Virus record (IMG/VR): IMGVR_UViG_3300038423_000132
Origin: an uncultured virus (IMG/VR IMGVR_UViG_3300038423_000132)
Taxonomy: Duplodnaviria > Heunggongvirae > Uroviricota > Caudoviricetes
Reading direction: 5' to 3' (one strand)
DNA length: 20,000 bases
Below, one piece after another: positions 6,004 to 20,000 of this stretch. A program made the position numbers and the translations under genes. The notes beneath the pieces were generated by a model. That model did not search any database, was not told where the DNA came from, and saw only the letters and a program-made list of their open reading frames with translations. Position 1 is the first letter of the stretch; each line of letters begins with the position of its first letter.

Positions 6004-7335
6004 GTGGCGACGATGGCAGGCGATCCAAGTCAATTTTTATCGGAAGACGAACAGTATGGCGCCATGCTGGGCCGGCTTCTCAACCCTCCCCCGGAGGCTG
6101 AGCAGCAGGTCGCACAGAATACGGCGCCAGCGGCTCCGGTCCAGAGACCTGCGCTCGCTCCCGCACAACCTGTGCCATCACCATCGCCAGCGGTGCCGCC
6201 AAAGCCAGCGACGCCGAACGCTGTCTCTCCGAACACGCCATCGTTCTACCAGCGCGGGCAACAGGGCGCACTGAACATGGCCGACCAGGACGCCCGAACG
6301 GTTACGGCGTTGGAGAACCAGCCGAACGCCGCGACTGAGAATAAGCTGCTCGAAGCGCAACGCGTCGCCCTGGCACAGCCTCTGAATCCTCAAGACCAAG
6401 GCTATCGCCCCGGAATCGGAACCAGAATCGCACGCGGACTGGCCGCGGCCCGCAAGGGTGGTATCGCCGGGGCCATTGACCCAACCGCAGTAGGAGCAAC
6501 CGCTTACGGCGCACCCAACCGCCAATTCGACATCGACACCGCGCGCCGGCAAGCGCAGGCGACCGTCCTTCAGTCCGAAGAGGACCGCAACATCGCCAAC
6601 GAGAAGGCAGAAAGCGAGCGGATCAAGGATGTCGGGACGGCGGCCGGCAGGGTTGGAACTGCCTACGGCGGTGTGGCCAGGGACGCCACGGCGCAGCAGA
6701 GCGCTGAGCAAAAGAGCCAATACGAAGGCCAGATCGCCGACCTTCGCCAGCAGCTCGCTAACCAAGGCGGCGTGCCCAAGACCTACGAGCAGGCCGTAAT
6801 CGCCTCGCAGATCGATCCAGACCCGCAGAAGCGGCAGGGATACGCCGCCGCAGCGAAGCAAATCGCCTCCCAGGAAGTCAAGAGGTTCCAGTACGCCAAC
6901 CGGGCGGTTGGAGGCGGCGAAGACGATCCCCGGCGCCAGCCGCTCATCGACGCTGCAACCGCACAGGTTGACAAGCTCAACACTTACGAGTGGGATCCTG
7001 AAGCCCAGAACGGCGCGGGCGGATTTTACGACCCGCACAGCGACGGGACAAAAACATACTCCCCGGCCGAGTTCACGGCGATGAAGAACGCGATCGCTAC
7101 AAAGCTGGACGCGCAGCTTACCCAAAAGAAGATGCGCCCGCTCGGCGTCCGGTTTACCGTCGCGGCGACGACTCCCGGCGGCGCACCCGCCGCGGCACAG
7201 CCAGGCGCGCCAGCCGCTCCCGCGCAGACTGCGCCATCCGCCACGACGGTTACACAGGGCCAGGTCTACAAGGGATACAAGTACCTCGGCGGCGATAGGG
7301 CGAACCCGAAAAGCTGGCAGCAGGTCCAGCAGTAA
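6004..7335 (+). CDS. Putative ejection (internal virion) protein, 443 aa
   Basis: Ala/Gln/Pro-rich with coiled-coil segments. C-terminal 'GQVYKGYKYLGGDRANPKSWQQV' is a motif type I recognise from podophage internal proteins. TAATG coupling to the next gene. Start may be GTG 6004 or ATG 6013. Confidence 0.6.
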   Translation: MATMAGDPSQFLSEDEQYGAMLGRLLNPPPEAEQQVAQNTAPAAPVQRPALAPAQPVPSPSPAVPPKPATPNAVSPNTPSFYQRGQQGALNMADQDARTVTALENQPNAATENKLLEAQRVALAQPLNPQDQGYRPGIGTRIARGLAAARKGGIAGAIDPTAVGATAYGAPNRQFDIDTARRQAQATVLQSEEDRNIANEKAESERIKDVGTAAGRVGTAYGGVARDATAQQSAEQKSQYEGQIADLRQQLANQGGVPKTYEQAVIASQIDPDPQKRQGYAAAAKQIASQEVKRFQYANRAVGGGEDDPRRQPLIDAATAQVDKLNTYEWDPEAQNGAGGFYDPHSDGTKTYSPAEFTAMKNAIATKLDAQLTQKKMRPLGVRFTVAATTPGGAPAAAQPGAPAAPAQTAPSATTVTQGQVYKGYKYLGGDRANPKSWQQVQQ

Positions 7336-10300
7336 TGGGCAGCGCAGCGGTCCAACTCGCCCCGTGGGAAGAGGCGGCGCAGCAGACCCCTCCGTGGGAA
7401 GAGGCTGCACAGGCGCAGACCAAAGCCGCGCCATCTCCCTACCCTCCCGGCACTCCCCCTGCAGCCCAACCATTTAGCGACCAGGACGCCGCGCGGTTCA
7501 CGCGGCCAGCCGGAACATCTGTTCCTCCAACCTTTTACAACAGAACTCCAAATACACCTAGCACGCAAAGTGCTGCACAGCCTCCATCCCCTCCCGGATT
7601 CTGGTCTTCGGTCGTTAAACCTGCCGCATCTTCGTTCGCGCGCGCTGTTGGTTTGCCTGGCTCCGTCGAAGAAGCTGCGCAACAGCAGGAGCAGCGACAG
7701 GCTGAGTTGCGCGCCCATCCCGTAAAAGGCACCATCGAGGCTCTCGCCGGTCCCCCTGGACAATTTGCGGAGGGGCTGTACGCGGGCGCAAAGCGCATCA
7801 CCGGCGAGCTGAAAGAGGGAGGCGAGGCGCTCGCAGAGGGCCAGCCTGGCTTCGCGGCGGTCCATGCGGTCCAGGCGATCCCATTCGTCGGTGCGGGGAT
7901 CCAGACCGGCGTTCAGCAACTCGGGCCGAACGAGCTGATAAACCCAGCGGAAGTTGGCACGGTCCTTGGCACAGCCGCCCAGGTTGCCCCCATGCTTTTG
8001 GGCGGAGGCGGTGAAGCCCGTCCAAAACTCAACCTCGGCGTTTACACCCCTCACGAGCCTCCGATGCTCCCGCTTCCCCCGGCAGAGCCTGAGTACGTGG
8101 GCGAGCCGGAAGCCCCTCCGCAGCCAGCAGGCATCCCTGACGCCGAGGTGACGCCGTGGGAGGAGGCTAAGCAGGCGCAACTGCCGGCCACGACATCGGC
8201 CGGACTCCGCCCGCCGCCGCCCGTCAACCGCGCCGAGGCCGTCGAGCGCACGACGCCGCCTCCGCAGTTCGCGCCGCGGCCAGCGCCGACCGCCGCTCGG
8301 GGAATGATCGTCGACCAGCAGGGGAATGTGCTCCCGGTGCGCCCCGGTCTGCCGCCGCCGGTTGAGACGGCCGGCCGGAAGACGCCGATCATCGCCAAGC
8401 CTGTCCCGCCGACCGTCCAGCCCGGGCCCGTCGCTCCAAGGTTGGCCACGCCCGCTGTGATGGCACCAGCGCCCGCGCAGGCTGTCCCTGTACAGGCCGC
8501 GCCCTCCCCGGCAGGCCAACCCACCATCCTGCAGCCGAACGCCCCACAGGGCCAGCCAGAGGCCCAGCGGCCTGTGGTTCAGGCAAGCACCGAACCGGCC
8601 GAGATCCGGCAATCGGCCGCGGAGCAGAAGCCGGTCCTCAAAGACATGGCCGAGACCGCCGTCGAGGGGATCCCCGGCGCCAAGGTCGAGGGGATGCGGG
8701 TCAAGGAGCCAGAGGCCGTCGAGAACAAGGAGGACCGCGGCAAGCCACCGGAGACCATCGTTGACCACCTCGGGGCTCGAGTCTCGGCTCCCACGCCAGA
8801 GGCGGTTGAGCAGATCAGGCAGAACATCGAGAGCCAGCTTCCGGTTCGAAGTGCCGACAAGATCGATTCGAACGGCGTGAATGCCGACCAATACGCCGTG
8901 CAGACCGGGATGCCGGGAGAGCCGAACCAGCAGTCTGAACTCCAGGTTGTGACCGCGCCGGTCGCCGAGGCCATGAAGGCCACGGACGACCTGTACGACC
9001 AGCAGAAGAAGGCGCTGGCGGCCGGGGACCAAGCCAAGGCCGATGAACTGGGCGCGCAGATCGCCGCCAAGATGCAGGACGCCCAACAGCCGGAGCTCCA
9101 GGGCCGCGCCGTGCTGGCCGAGTCGCCGGAGCAGACGCAGCTTGGCAACCCACCGCCCAAGGCGGGCGATACCGTCGCCTACCAGACCAACGGCGGGAAG
9201 ACGCGGAACGCGAAGGTCGTCCGGGTCGACGGCCAGGACGCCTACCTGCGCGACGGGTACGCGACGGTCAAGAAGCCGATCGCAAGCCTGAAACCGGCAG
9301 GCGCGCCCGCCGCCGCGCCAGTGCCGCAACCCGCCGCACCCGCGCCAGCAAAGGCCGCGCCCGTTGCGCGCGCCGCCGCCGCGCCGCCGCCGCCCGTCCA
9401 GCAGGGCCAGCCAGCGCCCGGCACGCCCCGCCCGGTTGGAGAGCCGATCCGGGCCCGCATCGATCAGATCAAGGACCTTGAGGCCAAGGGCCAGAAAGTC
9501 GTCATCTTCTCTGCCGAGGCCGACAACCCGGCGGTCAAAGAGGCTTTGACCAAGGCAGGTCTGGGCAACCTGCCGGTGACGAATATCAAGGGGCCGGACT
9601 TCGGCGCGCTGCTCGACAACGATGTAAACGTGGAGCGGAACGGGACCGGGCCGATGACGATTCCGCCCGTGGTGCCCGGAAAGTCTCTCTACGTCGATTT
9701 CGACGGAACGCTGTTCATGGAGCCGGGAGAGAGAACAGGAGCGCAAGCCAATGCCATTGAACCTCGGAACGGCGGCCAGCCATCAGGCCCTTCAGAAGCA
9801 AGTGGTGGTGGGGAGAAAATCAATGCCAATGAAATCGCAGGCAATGCGCCGCGCGCTGTGGGCCAAGGACCCCAAGGTGGCGCAGGAGTTCGAGAACGAG
9901 ACACCGAAGGGCGCGGTACTGCCGGAGCGATTGCACCCGCCGTCGAAGAAAAGCCACTGGGTCAGCCGGGCGGTGGGGAGAAACCGGAAAAAGTAACGAC
10001 CACCAAATACAAGTACGGCAACACCCAGGCCGACATCCCGCGCGGCTCGGAAGCCGGGAAAGCGCTCGCGGCTGCACGCGCCAAGATCGCCCCGGATGAC
10101 CTGATGCCTACCAGCAACACATCGGATGGCGGAGGTCTCGAAGAAGATTCCCATGTGACCGTCCGGTACGGGATTGACAGCGACGACACGAGCGGCATTC
10201 GGACGCATCTTGAGAAGCAGACACCGTTCGAGGCATCTCTGGGCAAGGTCACATCGTTTCCGCCGAGCGAACATTCGGACGGAGCAGCACCGATTGTCGT

Positions 10301-13250
10301 GGCAGTCGAGTCTCCCGAACTCCGTAAGTTGGAGAAAGAACTCGACAAGCACGGCGCATTTGTTGAGCGTAGCTTCCCCGAGTACAAGCCCCATGCGACT
10401 CTCGCCTACGTGAAACCGGAGGCGGCCCAGAAATATGTGGGGATGCCCGGAACTGAGGGCAAGAAGTTCACGGTCAACAGCATCTCGATCACGGATAAGA
10501 ACGGCGATTCTGTCTCGGTCCCGCTCAAAGGCAAGCACGCCCCCGCCTTCTACAGACCCAAGCCCGCGCCCGCTCCGGTAGAGAAGCCAGCCGCGCCGGT
10601 CAAGACGGAAGCGGATGCCGTCGCGCCGGGAACTGCGCCGCCGACTGAGTTGGAGAACCTGGCCTCCGCCGAGCAGGCCGCCAAGGAGCCAAAGGAAACG
10701 CCGTCCGCTCTCGGCTCGACGACCTACGCTGGCGGTTTCCTCGATCCCGAACTCTTCAAGACGCTCTTCCCCGACCTGGCTGAGCGATTCAAGAACTGGG
10801 CCACAGACGAGATCACTCCCGGCGACACGCAGCGCGAGATGATGCGCGAGACCCGCGGCGAGCGTGACCGGCAGGTTGCTGCAATCGCCAAGAAGCTCCA
10901 GCCGTCGCGGAACTCATGGACGTTCCGCCCGCGCTCCGACTCCACCAAGTTCTTCAATGCTGTCGAGAGCGGGGATCTTTCCTCCCTCGATCCCAAAGAC
11001 CGCGCGCTGGCCCAACTGTTCAAGGGTGGATTCGAGCCGCTCATCAAGGAGATTCAGGAGCTAAAGCCCCAAGTCCTGCAATCCCTGATCGAGAACTACT
11101 TCCCGCACATCTGGGAGCAGCCATCGATGGCCGCGAAGACCCTCCGTGCGGTCATGTCCGGGCGCCGCCCGTTCGCCGGATCCGGTTCATTCCTCAAGCA
11201 GCGTACCATTCCCACCATTCAGGACGGCCTCGACATGGGCCTCAAGCCAGTGTCGTGGAATCCTGTCGATCTGTTCCTGCGCAAGTATTCGGAGATGAGC
11301 CAGTTCCTGATGGGACACAAGACGCTGGAGATGATGAAAGAGGCCGGGACCGCAAAGCAGGTTATGGTTGGCAAGAAAGCTCCAGACGGATGGCGGCAGT
11401 TGGACGACAGGATCAGTACGATATTCAGCTACGATGATGACGACCATCTCTTCATTCGCGGCCATTACTACGCCCCTCCCGATGTAGCCAAGGTCTTCAA
11501 CAACTTTGTCTCCCGTGGTCTCGCCGGCCGCTCCGCGCTCTACGATGTGCTGCGCTGGACGAACAACAACCTCAACTCTCTGCAGTTGGGCATCTCCGCG
11601 TTCCACGCCTCGACCACGGCGGTCAACGCCGCAACCAGTGAAGTCGCTCTGGGAATCCAGAAACTGAGCGAGGGGAAACCCCTCGAGGCGGCAGGTCACA
11701 TCATCTCCGGGGCGACTGTAGCTCCCAGCGTAATCCGCACAATGGTCAACGGCTCGCGGATGATGAACGAATATCTCAGCCCTGGCAGCTATCGAAAGTT
11801 CGCGGCAGAAGCGTCTGCTGTTGCCGAGGCGGGCGGCAGGGCCAAGATGGATGTGGTTCCCATGACCGCCTTCCGCAAGACTGTGAACGCATTCAGGAAC
11901 GGCGCAGTGGCAGAGGGGCTGCTCTCCCTCCCAGGCACGGTACTCCAGACTACCATCGCTCCGGTCATGGACTACATGGTGCCCCGTGTGAAACTTGGAG
12001 CCTTCTACGACATGGCCCACGACATTCTGGATGAGGCTGCCGAGCACAACTGGGATGAGGAGGCGACGCGCCGGAAGATGCAGCGGGCGTGGGACTCGGT
12101 AGACAACCGCTTTGGCCAACTGGTCTACGACAACCTCTTCTGGCATCGCGCTCTTCAGGACACCCTCATGCTGGCCAGCCGGTCAGTAGGATGGAACTTT
12201 GGCGACATACGCGAATTGGGCGGAGGCATCAAGGATATAGGGCAGCAAGCTGCAGGCGTCTTTCAAGGGAAAATGCCGGAGGTTACTCCCAGGATGGCCT
12301 TCGCTTTTGCGCTGCCGCTGGTCACGGGCCTGATTGGCGGAGTGCTGACCTATCTCTGGACCGGCCACAAGCCGGATACGTGGAAGGACTACTTCTACCC
12401 GAAGCGGCAGGATGGAACGCGAGTCTCGATCCCCGGTTACATGAAGGATGTCATAGGCTTTGCGCAGCATCCTATCGGCACAGTGACCAACAAGATGAGC
12501 CCGCTGCTTGAGATGACGGCCGAGGCGATCAACAACCGCGACTTCTACGGCACTGAGATCCGGCACACGGATGACCCCTATGTGAAGCAACTCCTTCAAG
12601 TCTCTCGGTGGGCGGCGGGACAGACCGAACCCTTTGCTATCTCCGGCGGTCAGAAACTGCTGGCCAAAGAGGGGGAGGATACCACGTTCCGGTGGGCGCA
12701 TCCCGTCGAGTCGGTAGAGCGCATTGCCGGCGCGGCCGTCAGACACCCCGGCGATCTTGCGCTTGGTCAACTCGGGTTCCAGCCGGCACCGGCCTTCATA
12801 CAAAACTCGAAGGCACTCAACATGGCCCGCGAGTATGGACAGGCTAATCGGCCATCGGGAACAAAGACGCAGGCAGAGGCTGAGAAGTCCCAGGCCATGC
12901 ACACGATCGAGGATATGTATCGGGCGAAGCAAGTCAACCAATCGGTGATCGACGAGTACAAGAGATCTGGGGTAGTCAACGAAAACGATCTTGTGCGCGC
13001 AAGATTCTATGCTCGCACCGATCCATTGGTGGCAGCCGTGCGCTCTCTGCATTCCGACCAGGCGCTCAACGTGTACCTGGCGGCCACGCCAGCAGAACAG
13101 AAGACGCTGCGGCCATTGATCGAATTGAAGAATCGGGAGATACCAAAGGACACCCCCACCGATCAGCAGCAGCAACTCAAGGATGCCTACCGCAAGGCCC
13201 TGCATCCGCAACCGAAGTTTACGGGACCGAGCACCGGACCCGCCGCGTAG
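7335..13250 (+). CDS. Giant polyvalent ejection-type protein (RelA/SpoT-like, SH3-like, permuted HAD-like, 2H phosphoesterase and LPD38-like C-terminal regions), 1971 aa
   Basis: Uninterrupted 5.9-kb ORF, third and largest of the ejection-type genes. Motifs: RVK..DHLGARV..ELQVVT; GEPI..VVIFSA..VTNIK..VDFDGTL; HVT/HAT pair; C-terminal 'SPLLEMTAEAINNRDFYGTEI'. Confidence 0.8.
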   Translation: MGSAAVQLAPWEEAAQQTPPWEEAAQAQTKAAPSPYPPGTPPAAQPFSDQDAARFTRPAGTSVPPTFYNRTPNTPSTQSAAQPPSPPGFWSSVVKPAASSFARAVGLPGSVEEAAQQQEQRQAELRAHPVKGTIEALAGPPGQFAEGLYAGAKRITGELKEGGEALAEGQPGFAAVHAVQAIPFVGAGIQTGVQQLGPNELINPAEVGTVLGTAAQVAPMLLGGGGEARPKLNLGVYTPHEPPMLPLPPAEPEYVGEPEAPPQPAGIPDAEVTPWEEAKQAQLPATTSAGLRPPPPVNRAEAVERTTPPPQFAPRPAPTAARGMIVDQQGNVLPVRPGLPPPVETAGRKTPIIAKPVPPTVQPGPVAPRLATPAVMAPAPAQAVPVQAAPSPAGQPTILQPNAPQGQPEAQRPVVQASTEPAEIRQSAAEQKPVLKDMAETAVEGIPGAKVEGMRVKEPEAVENKEDRGKPPETIVDHLGARVSAPTPEAVEQIRQNIESQLPVRSADKIDSNGVNADQYAVQTGMPGEPNQQSELQVVTAPVAEAMKATDDLYDQQKKALAAGDQAKADELGAQIAAKMQDAQQPELQGRAVLAESPEQTQLGNPPPKAGDTVAYQTNGGKTRNAKVVRVDGQDAYLRDGYATVKKPIASLKPAGAPAAAPVPQPAAPAPAKAAPVARAAAAPPPPVQQGQPAPGTPRPVGEPIRARIDQIKDLEAKGQKVVIFSAEADNPAVKEALTKAGLGNLPVTNIKGPDFGALLDNDVNVERNGTGPMTIPPVVPGKSLYVDFDGTLFMEPGERTGAQANAIEPRNGGQPSGPSEASGGGEKINANEIAGNAPRAVGQGPQGGAGVRERDTEGRGTAGAIAPAVEEKPLGQPGGGEKPEKVTTTKYKYGNTQADIPRGSEAGKALAAARAKIAPDDLMPTSNTSDGGGLEEDSHVTVRYGIDSDDTSGIRTHLEKQTPFEASLGKVTSFPPSEHSDGAAPIVVAVESPELRKLEKELDKHGAFVERSFPEYKPHATLAYVKPEAAQKYVGMPGTEGKKFTVNSISITDKNGDSVSVPLKGKHAPAFYRPKPAPAPVEKPAAPVKTEADAVAPGTAPPTELENLASAEQAAKEPKETPSALGSTTYAGGFLDPELFKTLFPDLAERFKNWATDEITPGDTQREMMRETRGERDRQVAAIAKKLQPSRNSWTFRPRSDSTKFFNAVESGDLSSLDPKDRALAQLFKGGFEPLIKEIQELKPQVLQSLIENYFPHIWEQPSMAAKTLRAVMSGRRPFAGSGSFLKQRTIPTIQDGLDMGLKPVSWNPVDLFLRKYSEMSQFLMGHKTLEMMKEAGTAKQVMVGKKAPDGWRQLDDRISTIFSYDDDDHLFIRGHYYAPPDVAKVFNNFVSRGLAGRSALYDVLRWTNNNLNSLQLGISAFHASTTAVNAATSEVALGIQKLSEGKPLEAAGHIISGATVAPSVIRTMVNGSRMMNEYLSPGSYRKFAAEASAVAEAGGRAKMDVVPMTAFRKTVNAFRNGAVAEGLLSLPGTVLQTTIAPVMDYMVPRVKLGAFYDMAHDILDEAAEHNWDEEATRRKMQRAWDSVDNRFGQLVYDNLFWHRALQDTLMLASRSVGWNFGDIRELGGGIKDIGQQAAGVFQGKMPEVTPRMAFAFALPLVTGLIGGVLTYLWTGHKPDTWKDYFYPKRQDGTRVSIPGYMKDVIGFAQHPIGTVTNKMSPLLEMTAEAINNRDFYGTEIRHTDDPYVKQLLQVSRWAAGQTEPFAISGGQKLLAKEGEDTTFRWAHPVESVERIAGAAVRHPGDLALGQLGFQPAPAFIQNSKALNMAREYGQANRPSGTKTQAEAEKSQAMHTIEDMYRAKQVNQSVIDEYKRSGVVNENDLVRARFYARTDPLVAAVRSLHSDQALNVYLAATPAEQKTLRPLIELKNREIPKDTPTDQQQQLKDAYRKALHPQPKFTGPSTGPAA
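9823..9996 (+). CDS. Nested small basic protein, 57 aa (MPMKSQAMRRALWAKDPKVAQEFENETPKGAVLPERL...), in the +1 frame inside the giant gene
   Basis: GGAG (9812-9815) sits 7 nt before ATG 9823. By my count 48 of 57 codons end in G/C, versus about half in the host frame over the same bases. Resembles small phage 'MPFKSxAQRR...TPKGKxLP' proteins. Confidence 0.7.
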   Translation: MPMKSQAMRRALWAKDPKVAQEFENETPKGAVLPERLHPPSKKSHWVSRAVGRNRKK

Positions 13251-13264
13251 TACAGGAGGACGCA

Positions 13265-13879
13265 ATGCCGAACGGACGCAAGCCCGGGTGGAGGCCGCCG
13301 CCCGAACCGAAGAAGGAACGCCGGCCGCGTATGAGCCTTGAGCAGCGACGTGTACTCCGTGCCGAGAGAAAGGCTGCGCAGGAGCCTGGGTACATCCCTG
13401 TGCCCCCCGAGAAGCCCCACGTACCGAAGATCATGGACCCCGATCCCAACATCTTCCCACCCAAACTGCGGCGCGTGCTGCAGTATTACCTCGACACCTG
13501 GCCCCGCGACCTCGACAAAGCAGCAAGGGCAGCGTGGATGCTGCCAGATGAATTCAGGGAGCATCTGAAGTCGCCGGGCGTGAAAGAGTATCTGCGGCGG
13601 GAAGAAGAGAAGATCGACGAGAAAGCAGCCGATCGGAGGGCAGAGGCTCGCGTACTCACTGAAGATCATCTCGACGCGATGACGGTTGGCATCCTCGAAA
13701 ACCCGACCATTCCTCCAGCGCAGAAGGTGCGCATGATCGAAGTTGGCTACAGGCGGTTTGGTATGCTGAAGGACCGCGTTGAAGCGACGGGCGCAGGCGG
13801 TGCTCCGCTGGCATTCGAGCTAATCAGGATCGGCCAGAAAAAGGAACACGATGGCGACTCTGGCGATTCCTCTATTTAA
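13265..13879 (+). CDS. terS: Terminase small subunit
   Basis: AGGAGG RBS. Directly upstream of and overlapping TerL. C-terminal 'IEVGYRRFGMLKDRVEATGAGGAPL' matches the TerS 'LELLGKHLGMFxDRVExTGxxGGP' pattern. Confidence 0.75.
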   Translation: MPNGRKPGWRPPPEPKKERRPRMSLEQRRVLRAERKAAQEPGYIPVPPEKPHVPKIMDPDPNIFPPKLRRVLQYYLDTWPRDLDKAARAAWMLPDEFREHLKSPGVKEYLRREEEKIDEKAADRRAEARVLTEDHLDAMTVGILENPTIPPAQKVRMIEVGYRRFGMLKDRVEATGAGGAPLAFELIRIGQKKEHDGDSGDSSI

Positions 13880-15533
13880 TCCAAAGATAGAACTCCAGCC
13901 TAAACAGGGAGAGGTCTTCGATCTTGTCGAGGGCAATGAATCCACCTGGATTGGTGCTGGCGGAGGACGCGGGGGCGCTAAAAGCCGTTGCATCCAGTCT
14001 GTGATGCTCGCACGGCGGCTCCAGTTTCCGGCCACCATCGGCGCAATCGTAATGCGCAACTCCGACCAGGTGCGCAAGTACCACGAGGAGCGGATGCTAG
14101 CGGCGTGGCCGCAGCTTGAGCGGTGCTACGTCAGCACTAAACGCAAGATCGTTCTTCCCTTCCGCGAAGGTCTTCCCTCTGAGATTCACTTTCTCTACGC
14201 TGAAACCCTAAAGGATGTGATCCGTGTCTTTCGCTCCGCCAATTACTTCGATATTGGCATCGACCAGGCCGAGCAATTTGCCGAAGAAGAGCTCAGAGAG
14301 ATAAAGCAGGCCGCTCGGTGGCCAGACGTGCCAGAAGGAACATGCAAGTTGATCGTCGGTTTCAATATGGGCGGCGTGAGCATCGGCTTTTTCCGTAAGG
14401 TCTTTCACGACTTAGAATACCTCCCTAACGAAAATCCCAAACGGTACGCCTTCGTTCACTTCCGGCCCTTTGACAATTCACAATGGAGCCTTCCTGCGCT
14501 TCGGGCTGACGGGCTTACAGAGGAAGATTACTACTCGTGGCCAGAGACAAAGCGTCGTGAATACTGTGGGACACGTTCGGACTACGGCAAGGAGCTTCTC
14601 AGCCAGGACCCTGCGCTGGTGCAGCGCGACTTCGACGGCTCATGGGATTCCCTCGAAGGTGCTTTCTTCACGCGCTCGTGGGACCGCAATGCGAGCGTGC
14701 GTGCTCCAGAGGAAATCGATAGCATCATCAAACCATGGTGGGAGCGGTGGCTATCACAGGACTGGGCGCGCGGACACTACTGCGTCACCTATTGGCACGC
14801 GATGGGCGAGATGTCTCCAGAGGAGATCAAGAAGCATCTGGGGTGGGATGTGCGCTTCGCGCTGAAGGTGATCGTCACCTACAGGGAGTACGTGGCCGGC
14901 GGCGAGGCGGCGCCGGACTCCGGAGGCAACCGGGAGTTGGACGAAGAGGACATCGCTCGACAGATAGTCGAACGTACCCCATCGAGCGAACGCGCCAACC
15001 TCTCAGACTTCTTTCTGTCACCGGATGCCTTCGGTAAAAAGTCAAGCAAAAACACGATCGCTCAGACCGAGGGCGAAATCCTCATGGCGAGCGACATGCC
15101 ATATCCCCGGCACGCCGATGACGAGCGCATTACCGGCTGGAGCCTGATGTCGAAGCTCATGTTGGCTACCAAACGCAAGGGCTCGCGGGGAGAGGAGGTT
15201 TGGCTGATGTCGGTTAACTGCGTTGAGTTGGTATCTGCTATTCCACTCCAGATGCGTGACCCGAAGAAGCTGGAGGATGTTCTAAAAACGGATTTGAGCA
15301 CGGCGAAGATCGATCAGGATTGTATGGACGCAGCACGCTACGGACTGAAGAGTAAGCTCCAGCCGGGACAAAAGCCCAAGGAAGTTGAGGCCGAGGAGAA
15401 ACTGCGGGTACTGCAGGAGAGCGGTCTCGATGAGCACAGCCTCGGGATTTACAGGATCAGATATTCTCAAGAGGCCCGGGAGCCGGAAGAGCCTGCGCGG
15501 ATGGGTCGCGGCCGGGCAACACGGCGTATTTAG
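13851..15533 (+). CDS. terL: Terminase large subunit
   Basis: Adenine-binding 'LQPKQ', Walker A 'GGGRGGAKS', Walker B-like 'IGIDQAEQF', coupling-like 'FNMGG', 'DNSQW', 'RDFDGSWD', RNase H-type nuclease 'SQDWARGH', 'RITGW' and 'DCMDAARYG'. Confidence 0.92.
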   Translation: MATLAIPLFNPKIELQPKQGEVFDLVEGNESTWIGAGGGRGGAKSRCIQSVMLARRLQFPATIGAIVMRNSDQVRKYHEERMLAAWPQLERCYVSTKRKIVLPFREGLPSEIHFLYAETLKDVIRVFRSANYFDIGIDQAEQFAEEELREIKQAARWPDVPEGTCKLIVGFNMGGVSIGFFRKVFHDLEYLPNENPKRYAFVHFRPFDNSQWSLPALRADGLTEEDYYSWPETKRREYCGTRSDYGKELLSQDPALVQRDFDGSWDSLEGAFFTRSWDRNASVRAPEEIDSIIKPWWERWLSQDWARGHYCVTYWHAMGEMSPEEIKKHLGWDVRFALKVIVTYREYVAGGEAAPDSGGNRELDEEDIARQIVERTPSSERANLSDFFLSPDAFGKKSSKNTIAQTEGEILMASDMPYPRHADDERITGWSLMSKLMLATKRKGSRGEEVWLMSVNCVELVSAIPLQMRDPKKLEDVLKTDLSTAKIDQDCMDAARYGLKSKLQPGQKPKEVEAEEKLRVLQESGLDEHSLGIYRIRYSQEAREPEEPARMGRGRATRRI

Positions 15534-19242: not shown

Positions 19243-19428
19243 TCACAAATGTATGGGCGTGTCGGATTTTATTCCTCCGTTGTTCCAGCGCGCCGCCCAT
19301 GCTTCCGGCGTGTAGTCCTCCGGATGAGGACCCCAAGTTGACCACAGCCTACGCTCCAGTGCAGTCATCGGAGGTTTTCTCCACGCGGTCAACCGCTCAA
19401 CGAATTGACGGACGCGGCTGCGCTTCAT
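19243..19428 (-). CDS. Hypothetical protein, 61 aa
   Basis: ATGA overlap with the HNH-AP2 stop; fills the gap in the coupled array. Confidence 0.55.
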   Translation of the reverse strand: MKRSRVRQFVERLTAWRKPPMTALERRLWSTWGPHPEDYTPEAWAARWNNGGIKSDTPIHL

Positions 19429-19937
19429 GCCAGCCTCGCAAACTCACCGTGGTACTTCAGCGCAGCGGGTACCCAGAGCTCCGTGTGCGCCGCCTGCGCT
19501 GTATCCCGATATCCAAGGCGCAAATAGCCGATGTCTGTCTTGATCTGGGCGCGATACTTACCATTCTTTGTTCGGTATACGCCCTTGAATCCCGTGGTGT
19601 TGTTTTTCATTTTCCGCTTGTTTCTTTGTTGTTCGGAATCGTCGGCCATCCTTAGATTTGATCTGCGGTTGTCGAGAGTTTTCAGTGGGTCTCTGTGATC
19701 GCCTTCTGACTTGTCTCCGTAACCGAGTCCGAGAATCAGTCGGTGCATGTATATGCGATACCTCTTCCCGTTTACCGTCTTGGTGTTTGTGACTGCATAG
19801 AAAATCATCGTCCCGGGCCGTCGATGAGCGCGCCATTTGTAGCACGAAAGCCACTCGTAGTCGGCCGCGTCCGCGATCGTAACTTGCCCCTGCGTCAACG
19901 GGATTTCGCGGTATGATGTTTCTGGTGGGGTTGTCAT
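19425..19937 (-). CDS. HNH-AP2 domain (homing) endonuclease
   Basis: 'IPLTQGQVTIADAADYEWL..YKW', 'YMHRLILG', 'GDHRDPLKTLDNRRSNLR', 'NNTTGFKGVY...KYRAQI...LGYRDTAQAAH...AALKYHGEFA'. GGAGG RBS fits ATG 19937 (alternative start 19946). Confidence 0.92.
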   Translation of the reverse strand: MTTPPETSYREIPLTQGQVTIADAADYEWLSCYKWRAHRRPGTMIFYAVTNTKTVNGKRYRIYMHRLILGLGYGDKSEGDHRDPLKTLDNRRSNLRMADDSEQQRNKRKMKNNTTGFKGVYRTKNGKYRAQIKTDIGYLRLGYRDTAQAAHTELWVPAALKYHGEFARLA

Positions 19938-20000
19938 CGGACTCATCCTCCGGTTGGCTGAAGTAGCGCCGGGCGTTCGTTGCGCTCGACAGCCCCATAT

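Follow-up and report, generated by a model that had tools for sequence, protein, structure and literature searches.

A phage polyvalent protein that joins RelA/SpoT-like, circularly permuted mini-HAD and 2H phosphoesterase domains to a family-wide C-terminal module

The window studied here is a stretch of 20,000 nucleotides from an uncultured Caudoviricetes virus (IMG/VR record IMGVR_UViG_3300038423_000132), and its gene P0001 (positions 7335..13250, + strand) is a single uninterrupted open reading frame (ORF) for a protein of 1971 amino acids (aa). P0001 belongs to the phage polyvalent proteins as described by Iyer et al. 2017 (J Bacteriol, PMC5512222); in the text accessible to us, they define this class of proteins and predict their injection together with the DNA. 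Several disparate activities are joined in the one polypeptide (a RelA/SpoT-like (RSH) domain, a HAD-like domain, a 2H phosphoesterase domain, an SH3-like domain and a helical module), the domain composition varies among homologues, and the neighbourhood is one of virion and packaging genes: the gene of the large terminase subunit (TerL) is two genes on, and relatives of P0001 are encoded among tail and internal-virion genes. P0001 is probably carried in the virion, and its enzymes would act in the newly infected cell.

The C-terminal module of P0001 (aa ~1141-1971, positions 10755..13247, + strand; ~870 aa and mostly helical) is common to the whole family and holds an invariant ENYFPHIW motif (aa 1253-1260). 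A search with aa 1100-1971 identified at least 731 metagenomic proteins at E <= 0.001 (8000 candidates were scored), and all three thirds of the module were matched in each of the 120 listed relatives, which are the best 120 of these at least 731. Segments of P0001 from further upstream were present in far fewer of the same 120 proteins: RSH in 16, HAD in 10, 2H in 18 and SH3 in two. Precomputed Pfam labels of the best 120 are 2H (PF13563, 17 proteins), ddrB-ParB (8), SLT (7), GGDEF (6), ART-PolyVal (6), Zeta toxin (4), RelA_SpoT (3), SNF2 (3) and RadC (2), and single relatives have GNAT, histidine phosphatase, InPase and others; cargo labels were confirmed by a Pfam scan on 16 of the 120. ART-PolyVal, ddrB-ParB, LPD1 and InPase, all found in relatives, are domains defined from polyvalent proteins, and none of the four is present in P0001 itself. 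A constant module with swapped N-terminal cargo is the signature of phage polyvalent proteins, and the proposal of a preliminary description, made from the sequence alone, that P0001 carries variable cargo on a shared C-terminal region is thus borne out.

An AlphaFold2 (AF2) model of the module, built on 33 sequences, is mostly helix with a mean pLDDT of 80.9 and a pTM of 0.77, in agreement with the long helical C-terminal region that had been proposed. One helix is strongly hydrophobic (aa 1652-1677, positions 12288..12365, + strand; Kyte-Doolittle 19-residue peak 1.94); it is conserved in the consensus of alignment A4 and is, judged by its composition, a candidate membrane-inserting segment. 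P0001 has no Pfam or PHROG family within the module. The C-terminal end had been described as LPD38-like, and this part of the description is not confirmed: Pfam LPD38 (PF18857) has no match in P0001, and among 33 related modules there is one match at the level of noise (E 0.055). The only hint towards LPD38 comes from BFVD, where some neighbours of the module have LPD or LPD38 names (one LPD38, E 3.7e-5). In total BFVD returned 61 matches to the module at E <= 0.001, of which many carry the name 'Large polyvalent protein associated domain-containing protein' while others are called Zeta toxin, ART-PolyVal, RelA/SpoT or helicase; among them are proteins from Cellulophaga phage phi19:3, Ralstonia phage Alix, Escherichia phage PTXU04 and Microbacterium phage Shocker. 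Searches of the PDB with Foldseek and of the VIA-wide set with the module model gave low-probability rows of solenoids and helical bundles (best Z 6.4 over 66 residues), which neither support nor contradict a gp16-like fold.

Genomes of bacteria hold the module too: it was found in 64 genome loci, among them prophages and contigs of metagenome-assembled genomes of Acidobacteriota, Nitrospirae, Geobacteraceae and other groups, and it is present in the cultured Trichlorobacter thiogenes ATCC BAA-34 (L110) and Megasphaera paucivorans DSM 16981 (L120). These two contigs and two more (L115 and L127) include contigs of 3-5 Mb and are likely prophages. Three further matches, on short contigs (L114, L128, L148), come from bins that carry a Thermoplasmata or archaeon label. 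The RSH-HAD-2H cargo was not found with the query used in five module-bearing bacterial genomes.

The first of the three enzyme domains is a divergent RSH nucleotidyltransferase of the synthetase type (aa ~423-590, positions 8601..9104, + strand), with a Pfam core at aa 455-541 that matches PF04607. Weak RelA_SpoT matches were also obtained for seven of eight homologous segments from other contigs. The profile of the domain matches three further proteins, in exactly the regions that Pfam assigns to RelA_SpoT: P0043 (E 6e-56; Pfam 28.8 bits), P0009 (E 5e-36; 28.2 bits) and P0027 (E 8e-30; 26.9 bits); the homologous domain of another relative, P0290, reaches 31.9 bits. As P0001 is below the Pfam cut-off and homologues linked to it by profile are above it, its membership in RelA/SpoT is transitive, and at the level of sequence the RSH domain placed at ~8601-9015 by the preliminary description is confirmed on this basis. 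All 16 sequences compared have the same residue at R455, K457, K465, D477 and E535, and R482 and Q537 are conserved in at least 90%; we take these residues to be the RxK...K, DxxGxR and ExQ motifs of the synthetases.

The second enzyme domain is a circularly permuted mini-HAD phosphatase-like domain (aa ~697-800, positions 9423..9734, + strand; alignments A2, A3 and A6, and hhalign). All four HAD motifs are present in P0001, namely motif II (V722-I-F-S-A), motif III (K752), motif IV (D761) and motif I (D788-F-D790-G-T792), and their order is II-III-IV-I, with motif I at the C-terminal end. V722, I724, F725, T749-N-x-K752, D761 and V787-D788-x-D790-x-T792 are invariant in 15 of 15 sequences; F725 is followed by serine or threonine across the family (S726 in P0001) and then by alanine. 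Viral contigs also hold the canonical order, in which the same II-IV region has a GVDFDGTL motif upstream: such domains occur as stand-alone proteins of 113-128 aa (L078-L081, for example L079:180-518; P0122-P0241) and in a protein of 2743 aa (L082, L083). When the permuted set (A3) was aligned to the canonical set (A5) with hhalign, the probability was 98.9% (E 2e-17, 80 columns), with motifs II-IV only being covered. The permuted HAD-like domain that had been read from the sequence at ~9432-9722 is thus confirmed at sequence level.

The family behind this domain is large. A profile search of 1.84 billion representative proteins gave 2657 matches at E <= 0.001 and 274 at E <= 1e-10; of the best 150, motif I is upstream, as in the canonical order, in 130, the order is permuted in 15, and five are fragments or unclear. 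A word-indexed search gave 138 members of the stand-alone family; all of them lack a Pfam annotation, and JGI names one a HAD phosphatase. No Pfam HAD model reaches its threshold for the mini-HAD; sub-threshold matches in 92 relatives are exclusively to the HAD clan (LNS2 15, HAD_PNKP 6, NT5C 3, HAD 1, Hydrolase_6 1; best E 1.6e-4), and ESM feature neighbours, which serve as a lead only, are likewise all of the HAD clan (scores 0.91-0.93). The mini-HAD part of the AF2 model is an alpha/beta structure with pLDDT > 90. Profile searches of the PDB with mini-HAD alignments were empty, and fold searches with a model of the SH3-like and HAD parts together returned lists filled by SH3/Tudor matches, with none for the HAD part; as the SH3 matches filled both lists, the HAD part had no real comparison to solved structures. 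Small fusions of the mini-HAD to a true Acb1 domain (P0299), InPase, NADAR and LigD 3'-phosphoesterase were also seen.

The third enzyme, a 2H phosphoesterase (aa ~891-1066, positions 10005..10532, + strand; PF13563 and phrog_755), is the sole domain of P0001 that is found directly. Its two HxT motifs (H940-V-T942 and H1020-A-T1022) are invariant in 17 of 17 family sequences, and the PF13563 score, with a cut-off of 27, is 36.2 bits for the full-length protein and rises to 39.5 bits (E 7.5e-10) on aa 833-1102 alone; this agrees with the 2H phosphoesterase previously placed at ~10005-10530. The Acb1 model PF23474, with the same cut-off of 27, scores 24.5 bits in the whole protein and 28.5 bits on the isolated segment. 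An hhalign comparison of the 2H profile with the bona fide Acb1 domain of P0299, a 306-aa protein in which this domain (52.8 bits to PF23474) is fused to a mini-HAD, gave 75.9% (E 2.3e-5) with both motifs in register. Nothing significant was obtained from the PDB by sequence and profile searches that used the 2H and RSH-to-HAD segments as well as alignments A1, A2 and A5. A 2H domain 42% identical to that of P0001 is present in gp321 of the Tunturiibacter jumbo phage Tunturi_5 (1362 aa, annotated 'MutT/NUDIX hydrolase'; L093, PP885688.1 261501-265589), a gene between head-tail connector and minor tail genes; domain and position together make gp321 probably another polyvalent protein of a virion module.

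Between and ahead of these enzymes the sequence is of a different kind. The N-terminal region (aa 1-422, positions 7335..8600, + strand) is rich in proline, alanine and glutamine and has no Pfam match; it contains a short conserved sub-region (aa ~107-240) and a moderately hydrophobic stretch (aa 171-189), and among the 120 listed relatives it is shared with P0002 and P0010 only. The fraction of proline, alanine, glycine and glutamine is 0.53 in aa 1-422, 0.83 in aa 666-700 and 0.52 in aa 801-890; the three enzyme domains have values of 0.28-0.39 and the short SH3-like segment one of 0.46, and the Pro/Ala-rich linkers of the preliminary description are therefore real. The SH3-like domain is confirmed as a small SH3/Tudor-like beta-barrel (aa ~606-660, positions 9150..9314, + strand): when aa 601-812 were modelled with AF2 from 15 sequences, two well-predicted parts were joined by a disordered Pro/Ala linker, and the barrel has four strands with pLDDT > 90. 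It matches Tudor, SH3 and KOW folds (Foldseek E ~0.01; VIA Z up to 7.8 at a root-mean-square deviation of 2.0 over 53 residues), and comparable barrels are found ahead of the HAD domain in L067, L012, L082 and others.

The enzyme domains often travel together. In the 121 proteins of the C-terminal family, including P0001 and P0002, iterated local searches found the RSH domain in 24, the HAD domain in 17, the 2H domain in 18 and all three in 11. All 17 proteins with HAD also have RSH, while seven of the 24 with RSH have no HAD; RSH is always first, and the 2H domain may be on either side of HAD. In a second, independent survey, of the 150 best mini-HAD proteins, 83 have at most 250 aa and none of these has RSH or 2H, while the 26 proteins of more than 900 aa include 16 with RSH, 13 with 2H, 10 with both and 12 with the C-terminal module; RSH is ahead of HAD in 27 of 27 cases. 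The pairing of RSH with HAD persists through changes of order, through the permutation of HAD and through the insertion of other domains, and P0290 (677 aa) has RelA_SpoT and 2H with a HAD of the canonical order. Two very large proteins, P0246 (4063 aa) and P0248 (3902 aa), combine RSH and permuted HAD with an SNF2 helicase and the C-terminal module, and P0246 has in addition 2H, GGDEF and an Eco57I/N6 DNA methylase.

All three enzyme domains retain their catalytic motifs (2H in 17 of 17 sequences, RSH in 16 of 16 and HAD in 15 of 15), and from this conservation all three domains of P0001 are expected to be active. The front ~1100 aa resemble beads on a string, with small domains separated by disordered Pro/Ala-rich linkers, and such an arrangement would permit threading into the cell with the DNA. 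The beads form a recurrent cassette: an RSH pyrophosphokinase or nucleotidyltransferase that is always N-terminal to the HAD, the SH3-like barrel, the permuted mini-HAD as a predicted phosphomonoesterase, and an Acb1-related 2H phosphodiesterase. The rear ~870 aa would be the structural part that, by analogy to T7 gp16, seats the protein in the virion and takes part in genome ejection. In the mechanism that we consider most likely, on entry and ahead of phage gene expression, the 2H domain could cleave cyclic or 2',3'-cyclic-phosphate nucleotides, which may be immune signals or RNA ends; the HAD domain could strip the terminal phosphate left by reactions of the 2H type, or that of the RSH product; and the RSH domain could move pyrophosphate from ATP to a nucleotide, as in alarmone synthesis, or to an RNA 3' end, so that the host would be reprogrammed or stalled.

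Within this frame of a virion-borne protein three readings of the cargo are considered, which are not mutually exclusive. That the 2H domain destroys cyclic-oligonucleotide immune signals, as the preliminary description suggested, we propose tentatively, at somewhat less than even confidence. Iyer et al. propose that 2H domains of polyvalent proteins degrade nucleotides of defence systems (PMC5512222, in the portion available).

The domain counts bear on a second reading, in which RSH and HAD are a coupled pair that makes or limits one 3'-(pyro)phosphorylated nucleotide product, either by two-step synthesis of a 3'-phosphorylated nucleotide or as a synthetase with a built-in hydrolase, and 2H is a separate add-on. 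Long RSH enzymes and the pairs of toxic small alarmone synthetases (toxSAS) and small alarmone hydrolases are precedents for a synthetase plus a hydrolase. A functional pair would be consistent with the constant presence of RSH beside HAD in the C-terminal family, with the fixed order in the multi-domain proteins of the HAD survey and with a 2H domain that is optional and variable in position. The counts come from related proteins, however, and both the RSH domains that have no HAD and the many stand-alone mini-HADs that have no RSH are at odds with an obligatory partnership; we regard the coupled pair as possible but rather doubtful.

The third reading is a kit for the healing of RNA ends: 2H would open the 2',3'-cyclic phosphates that host anticodon nucleases or HEPN-type RNases produce at RNA ends, HAD would remove the phosphate in the manner of PNKP-type or 'Swiss-army-knife' phosphatases, and tRNA or mRNA would be ready for religation. 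The sub-threshold HAD_PNKP matches (six of the 92 mini-HAD relatives), the one mini-HAD relative fused to a LigD 3'-phosphoesterase domain and the repeated fusions of 2H to HAD are in line with this, and phage RNA repair does use a 2H enzyme followed by a HAD phosphatase, according to the accessible part of a review on jumbo phages (PMC7824862). On the other hand, a Pfam scan detected no RNA ligase domain in P0001 or 30 relatives, the available text of PMC5512222 states that RNA ligases are never partners of the 2H versions found in polyvalent proteins, and the obligate RSH partner is left without explanation, so that we consider end-healing unlikely.

Relatives of the module are encoded in 58 IMG/VR loci, and some of these retain a recognisable virion context. 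L017 and L019 have the same gene order: tail tubular protein A (phrog_394), tail tubular protein B (phrog_376; E 1e-201 and 1e-137), internal virion protein (phrog_418), a gene of 482 aa, the family member and the tail fibre (phrog_1640). The family members of these two loci are minimal (1241 and 1312 aa). Tubular protein B of L017 matches 211 phage records, with T7-like pelagiphages best, and in the pelagiphage HTVC203P the interval between tubular protein B and tail fibre is filled by annotated internal virion proteins. The family thus occupies the gp16-type slot in T7-like gene orders. In another locus, L052, a member of the 'DNA ejection' family phrog_598 is encoded two genes upstream of the family member. 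Of the seven listed relatives with an SLT domain, one was checked (P0032) and has this domain at the N-terminus; the SLT domain of T7 gp16 is likewise N-terminal. A further match of the L017 member (E 1.1e-5) is to phrog_342, 'internal virion protein with endolysin domain', with a match region (aa 218-578) that overlaps the shared module only from aa ~461 and is mostly outside it. By analogy, the gp16-type slot of these distant relatives would support packaging and ejection of P0001.

Several observations weigh against P0001 being a virion-borne protein with this set of enzymes. We infer its presence in the virion and its entry into the cell from gene context, and the T7-like context is provided only by relatives with 34-35% identity in the module (L017, L019). 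PHROGs identifies no gene for a tail, tubular or internal virion protein either in the window or in G002-G004, the complete relatives. The module has no convincing match to any solved structure; hmmsearch with its profile found no match among the internal virion proteins of HTVC203P, and tblastn of the module, or of the minimal L017 member, against 50,697 phage records found none either. As for the enzymes, the RSH domain of P0001 reaches 15 bits (E 0.031) against PF04607, below the cut-off of 27; the HAD membership rests on motifs, on a profile link to an unannotated family and on sub-threshold matches; PF13563 outscores the Acb1 model in both scans; and the co-occurrence counts, coming from related sequences, are not independent events. 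RNase action is given as an equal alternative for 2H domains of polyvalent proteins (PMC5512222, in the text accessible to us). For the podovirus-type ejection protein of the preliminary description, the T7-like internal-virion slot of L017 and L019 stands in its favour, while its extension to P0001 is putative, as it depends on distant relatives and the window has no recognised tail or internal-virion gene. The search for phrog_376 in G001-G005 also had no match, but control genomes were equally silent, and this absence is uninformative.

That P0001 is not delivered at all but is a cytoplasmic accessory (late or early) or a head-internal or scaffold protein, with enzymes that act in the producing cell only, would be consistent with TerL as the sole recognised structural family in the window and with a module that matches no solved ejection protein, but it is very unlikely given the translational coupling of the gene in a late block beside terminase genes, the relatives between internal virion proteins and tail fibre, the SLT domains of some relatives, and a beads-on-a-string design and family markers (ART-PolyVal, ddrB-ParB, InPase) that fit a class predicted to be injected. 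The reading as a tape-measure protein was considered and dropped: in the AF2 model (pTM 0.77) the helices pack into a compact body and not into an extended coil, no chaperone/frameshift pair precedes the gene, and relatives are found in podovirus-type gene orders.

The complete relatives G002-G004 belong to the same clade and have genomes of 63-69 kb, G004 with direct terminal repeats. In G002 (L095-L097) PHROGs recognises recombination genes (SbcC-like, Bet/RecT-like and RecE-like), a radical SAM protein and a primosomal protein, and no structural gene; one ORF of 1574 aa in the G002-G004 relatives is not recognised by PHROGs.

The gene of P0001 is part of a tightly coupled late block on the + strand. 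Its start codon shares bases with the stop codon of a 443-aa gene upstream (TAATG, with the ATG at 7335), and this overlap favours the longer gene form of 1971 aa over the start of P0002, a database gene call of the identical protein that begins 106 residues later and has 1865 aa. An identical copy of P0001 is encoded on G001, an IMG/VR-type viral record of 22.7 kb (CheckV 35% complete). Downstream is a 204-aa gene (positions 13265..13879, + strand) with AGGAGG 6 nt upstream of its ATG; it overlaps the gene of TerL (positions 13851..15533, + strand; phrog_2, E 2.1e-20), and TAATG overlap, AGGAGG and overlap with TerL together indicate the tight coupling. The reading of 7335..13250 as one real gene is upheld by one open + frame of 1971 aa, and its surroundings are a late structural or packaging block of tightly packed + strand genes that end in TerL.

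The order is also kept beyond the window. TerL is downstream of the family gene in L002-L005 and L012, and the 204-aa gene, which has no family match in Pfam or PHROGs, immediately follows the big gene in 14 loci; by its position, it may be the small terminase subunit. The upstream 443-aa gene (positions 6004..7335, + strand) is translationally coupled and has no Pfam or PHROG match; in the close relatives L007 and L015 a homologue immediately precedes the big gene. Four ORFs of the window adjoin the big gene upstream (269, 237, 190 and 443 aa): L007 has homologues of all four, and L015 retains solely that of the 443-aa ORF. None of the neighbouring ORFs of the window has a Pfam match, and PHROGs recognises among them only TerL and an HNH endonuclease (positions 19425..19946, minus strand; phrog_99, E 5.3e-29), which is located beyond the terminase region. 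An ESM Atlas search with a neighbouring protein of 1152 aa returned viral hypothetical clusters only, and no tRNA genes were found in the window.

The concept of an injected protein with nucleotide-active cargo is not new. The accessible text of Iyer et al. (PMC5512222) names RelA/SpoT, 2H, InPase, DdrB-ParB and LPD38 as components of phage-type polyvalent proteins, and also reports GGDEF; with the idea that defence nucleotides are degraded already in that text, the suggestion that P0001 is part of an undescribed system cannot be upheld. Injected phage proteins that block defences are also reported in the parts of two further sources available to us, T4 Ip2 and Ip3 (PMC12373910) and the ICP3 ejectosome protein Gp15, which inhibits the CBASS effector CapV (bioRxiv 10.1101/2025.07.23.666291). 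Literature searches, as far as texts were accessible, found no link between Acb1 and polyvalent proteins in this sense, 'polyvalent' appearing to be used for host range; neither did they find a description of a circularly permuted HAD in phages, and the accessible part of PMC7824862 has no permuted HAD.

If virions do bring in finished enzymes that destroy or counterfeit nucleotide signals, CBASS, Pycsar, type III CRISPR, Thoeris and alarmone-based defences could be disarmed ahead of phage transcription, at a stage of infection that is difficult to investigate. With at least 731 proteins that have the module and 2657 clusters that have the mini-HAD, the family is large, and it is almost wholly without annotation. 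The module is present in prophage genes of cultured bacteria, and the idea of 2017 is thereby open to experiment; the permuted mini-HAD and its pairing with RSH are concrete new handles for biochemistry. A more far-reaching proposal, which we consider decidedly improbable as a whole, is that the RSH-like domain and the permuted mini-HAD are a dedicated, virion-delivered two-enzyme unit that makes or erases a nucleotide or RNA end with a 3'-(pyro)phosphate, of a kind unreported in phage-host conflict, that the Acb1-like 2H domain removes cyclic-nucleotide immune signals in parallel, and that the permutation of HAD is an adaptation to unfolding and refolding in passage through the tail. Such a unit may, for example, make a 3'-phosphorylated alarmone-like signal or undo the 3'-pyrophosphorylation of tRNA by host toxSAS.

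Compared with small alarmone synthetases and toxSAS (PF04607), the RSH domain has kept the residues of the synthetase nucleotidyltransferase motifs, and its homologues pass the Pfam threshold. The copy in P0001, however, scores 15 bits and has neither an HD hydrolase domain nor an antitoxin, and the HAD phosphatase, when present, is always C-terminal of the RSH domain in the P0001 family. With the capless HAD phosphatases (HAD_PNKP, NT5C, LNS2) the mini-HAD shares all four HAD motifs, including the DxDxT nucleophile motif; it differs in its minimal size of ~100 aa and in motif I, which has moved to the C-terminal end. Acb1 (PF23474) is a small free anti-CBASS 2H phosphodiesterase protein. The 2H domain of P0001 has the same fold, two HxT motifs and 28.5 bits as an isolated domain, but the generic PF13563 scores higher, Acb1 is below its cut-off in the full-length scan (24.5 bits), and the domain is embedded in a protein of 1971 aa.

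T7 gp16 is, like the family, large and mostly helical, and its gene is located after those of tubular and internal virion proteins and before the tail fibre, as in the relatives L017 and L019; further similarities are the SLT domain of some family members, the weak phrog_342 match of the L017 member and one conserved hydrophobic helix. P0001 itself differs, as neither its sequence nor its structure matches gp16-type proteins significantly and an SLT domain is absent, and it bears ~1100 aa of enzymatic cargo; to our knowledge, T7 gp16 has no such cargo.

The closest comparison is with the phage-type polyvalent proteins themselves. In the accessible text of PMC5512222 these have, as P0001 has, many unrelated enzymatic domains in one large polypeptide that is encoded in a phage structural module and predicted to enter the cell with the DNA. 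Three features set P0001 apart: its ~870-aa module is outside any Pfam LPD model; the main text, by a whole-word search that did not extend to the supplement, mentions no HAD domain, SH3-like domain or permutation; and the order RSH to HAD, with or without 2H, does not occur in the passages available. The permuted mini-HAD and the pairing of RSH with HAD, often with 2H, are thus new elements relative to the published polyvalent proteins, and so is the C-terminal module, which had no prior annotation and marks a family of at least 731 proteins.

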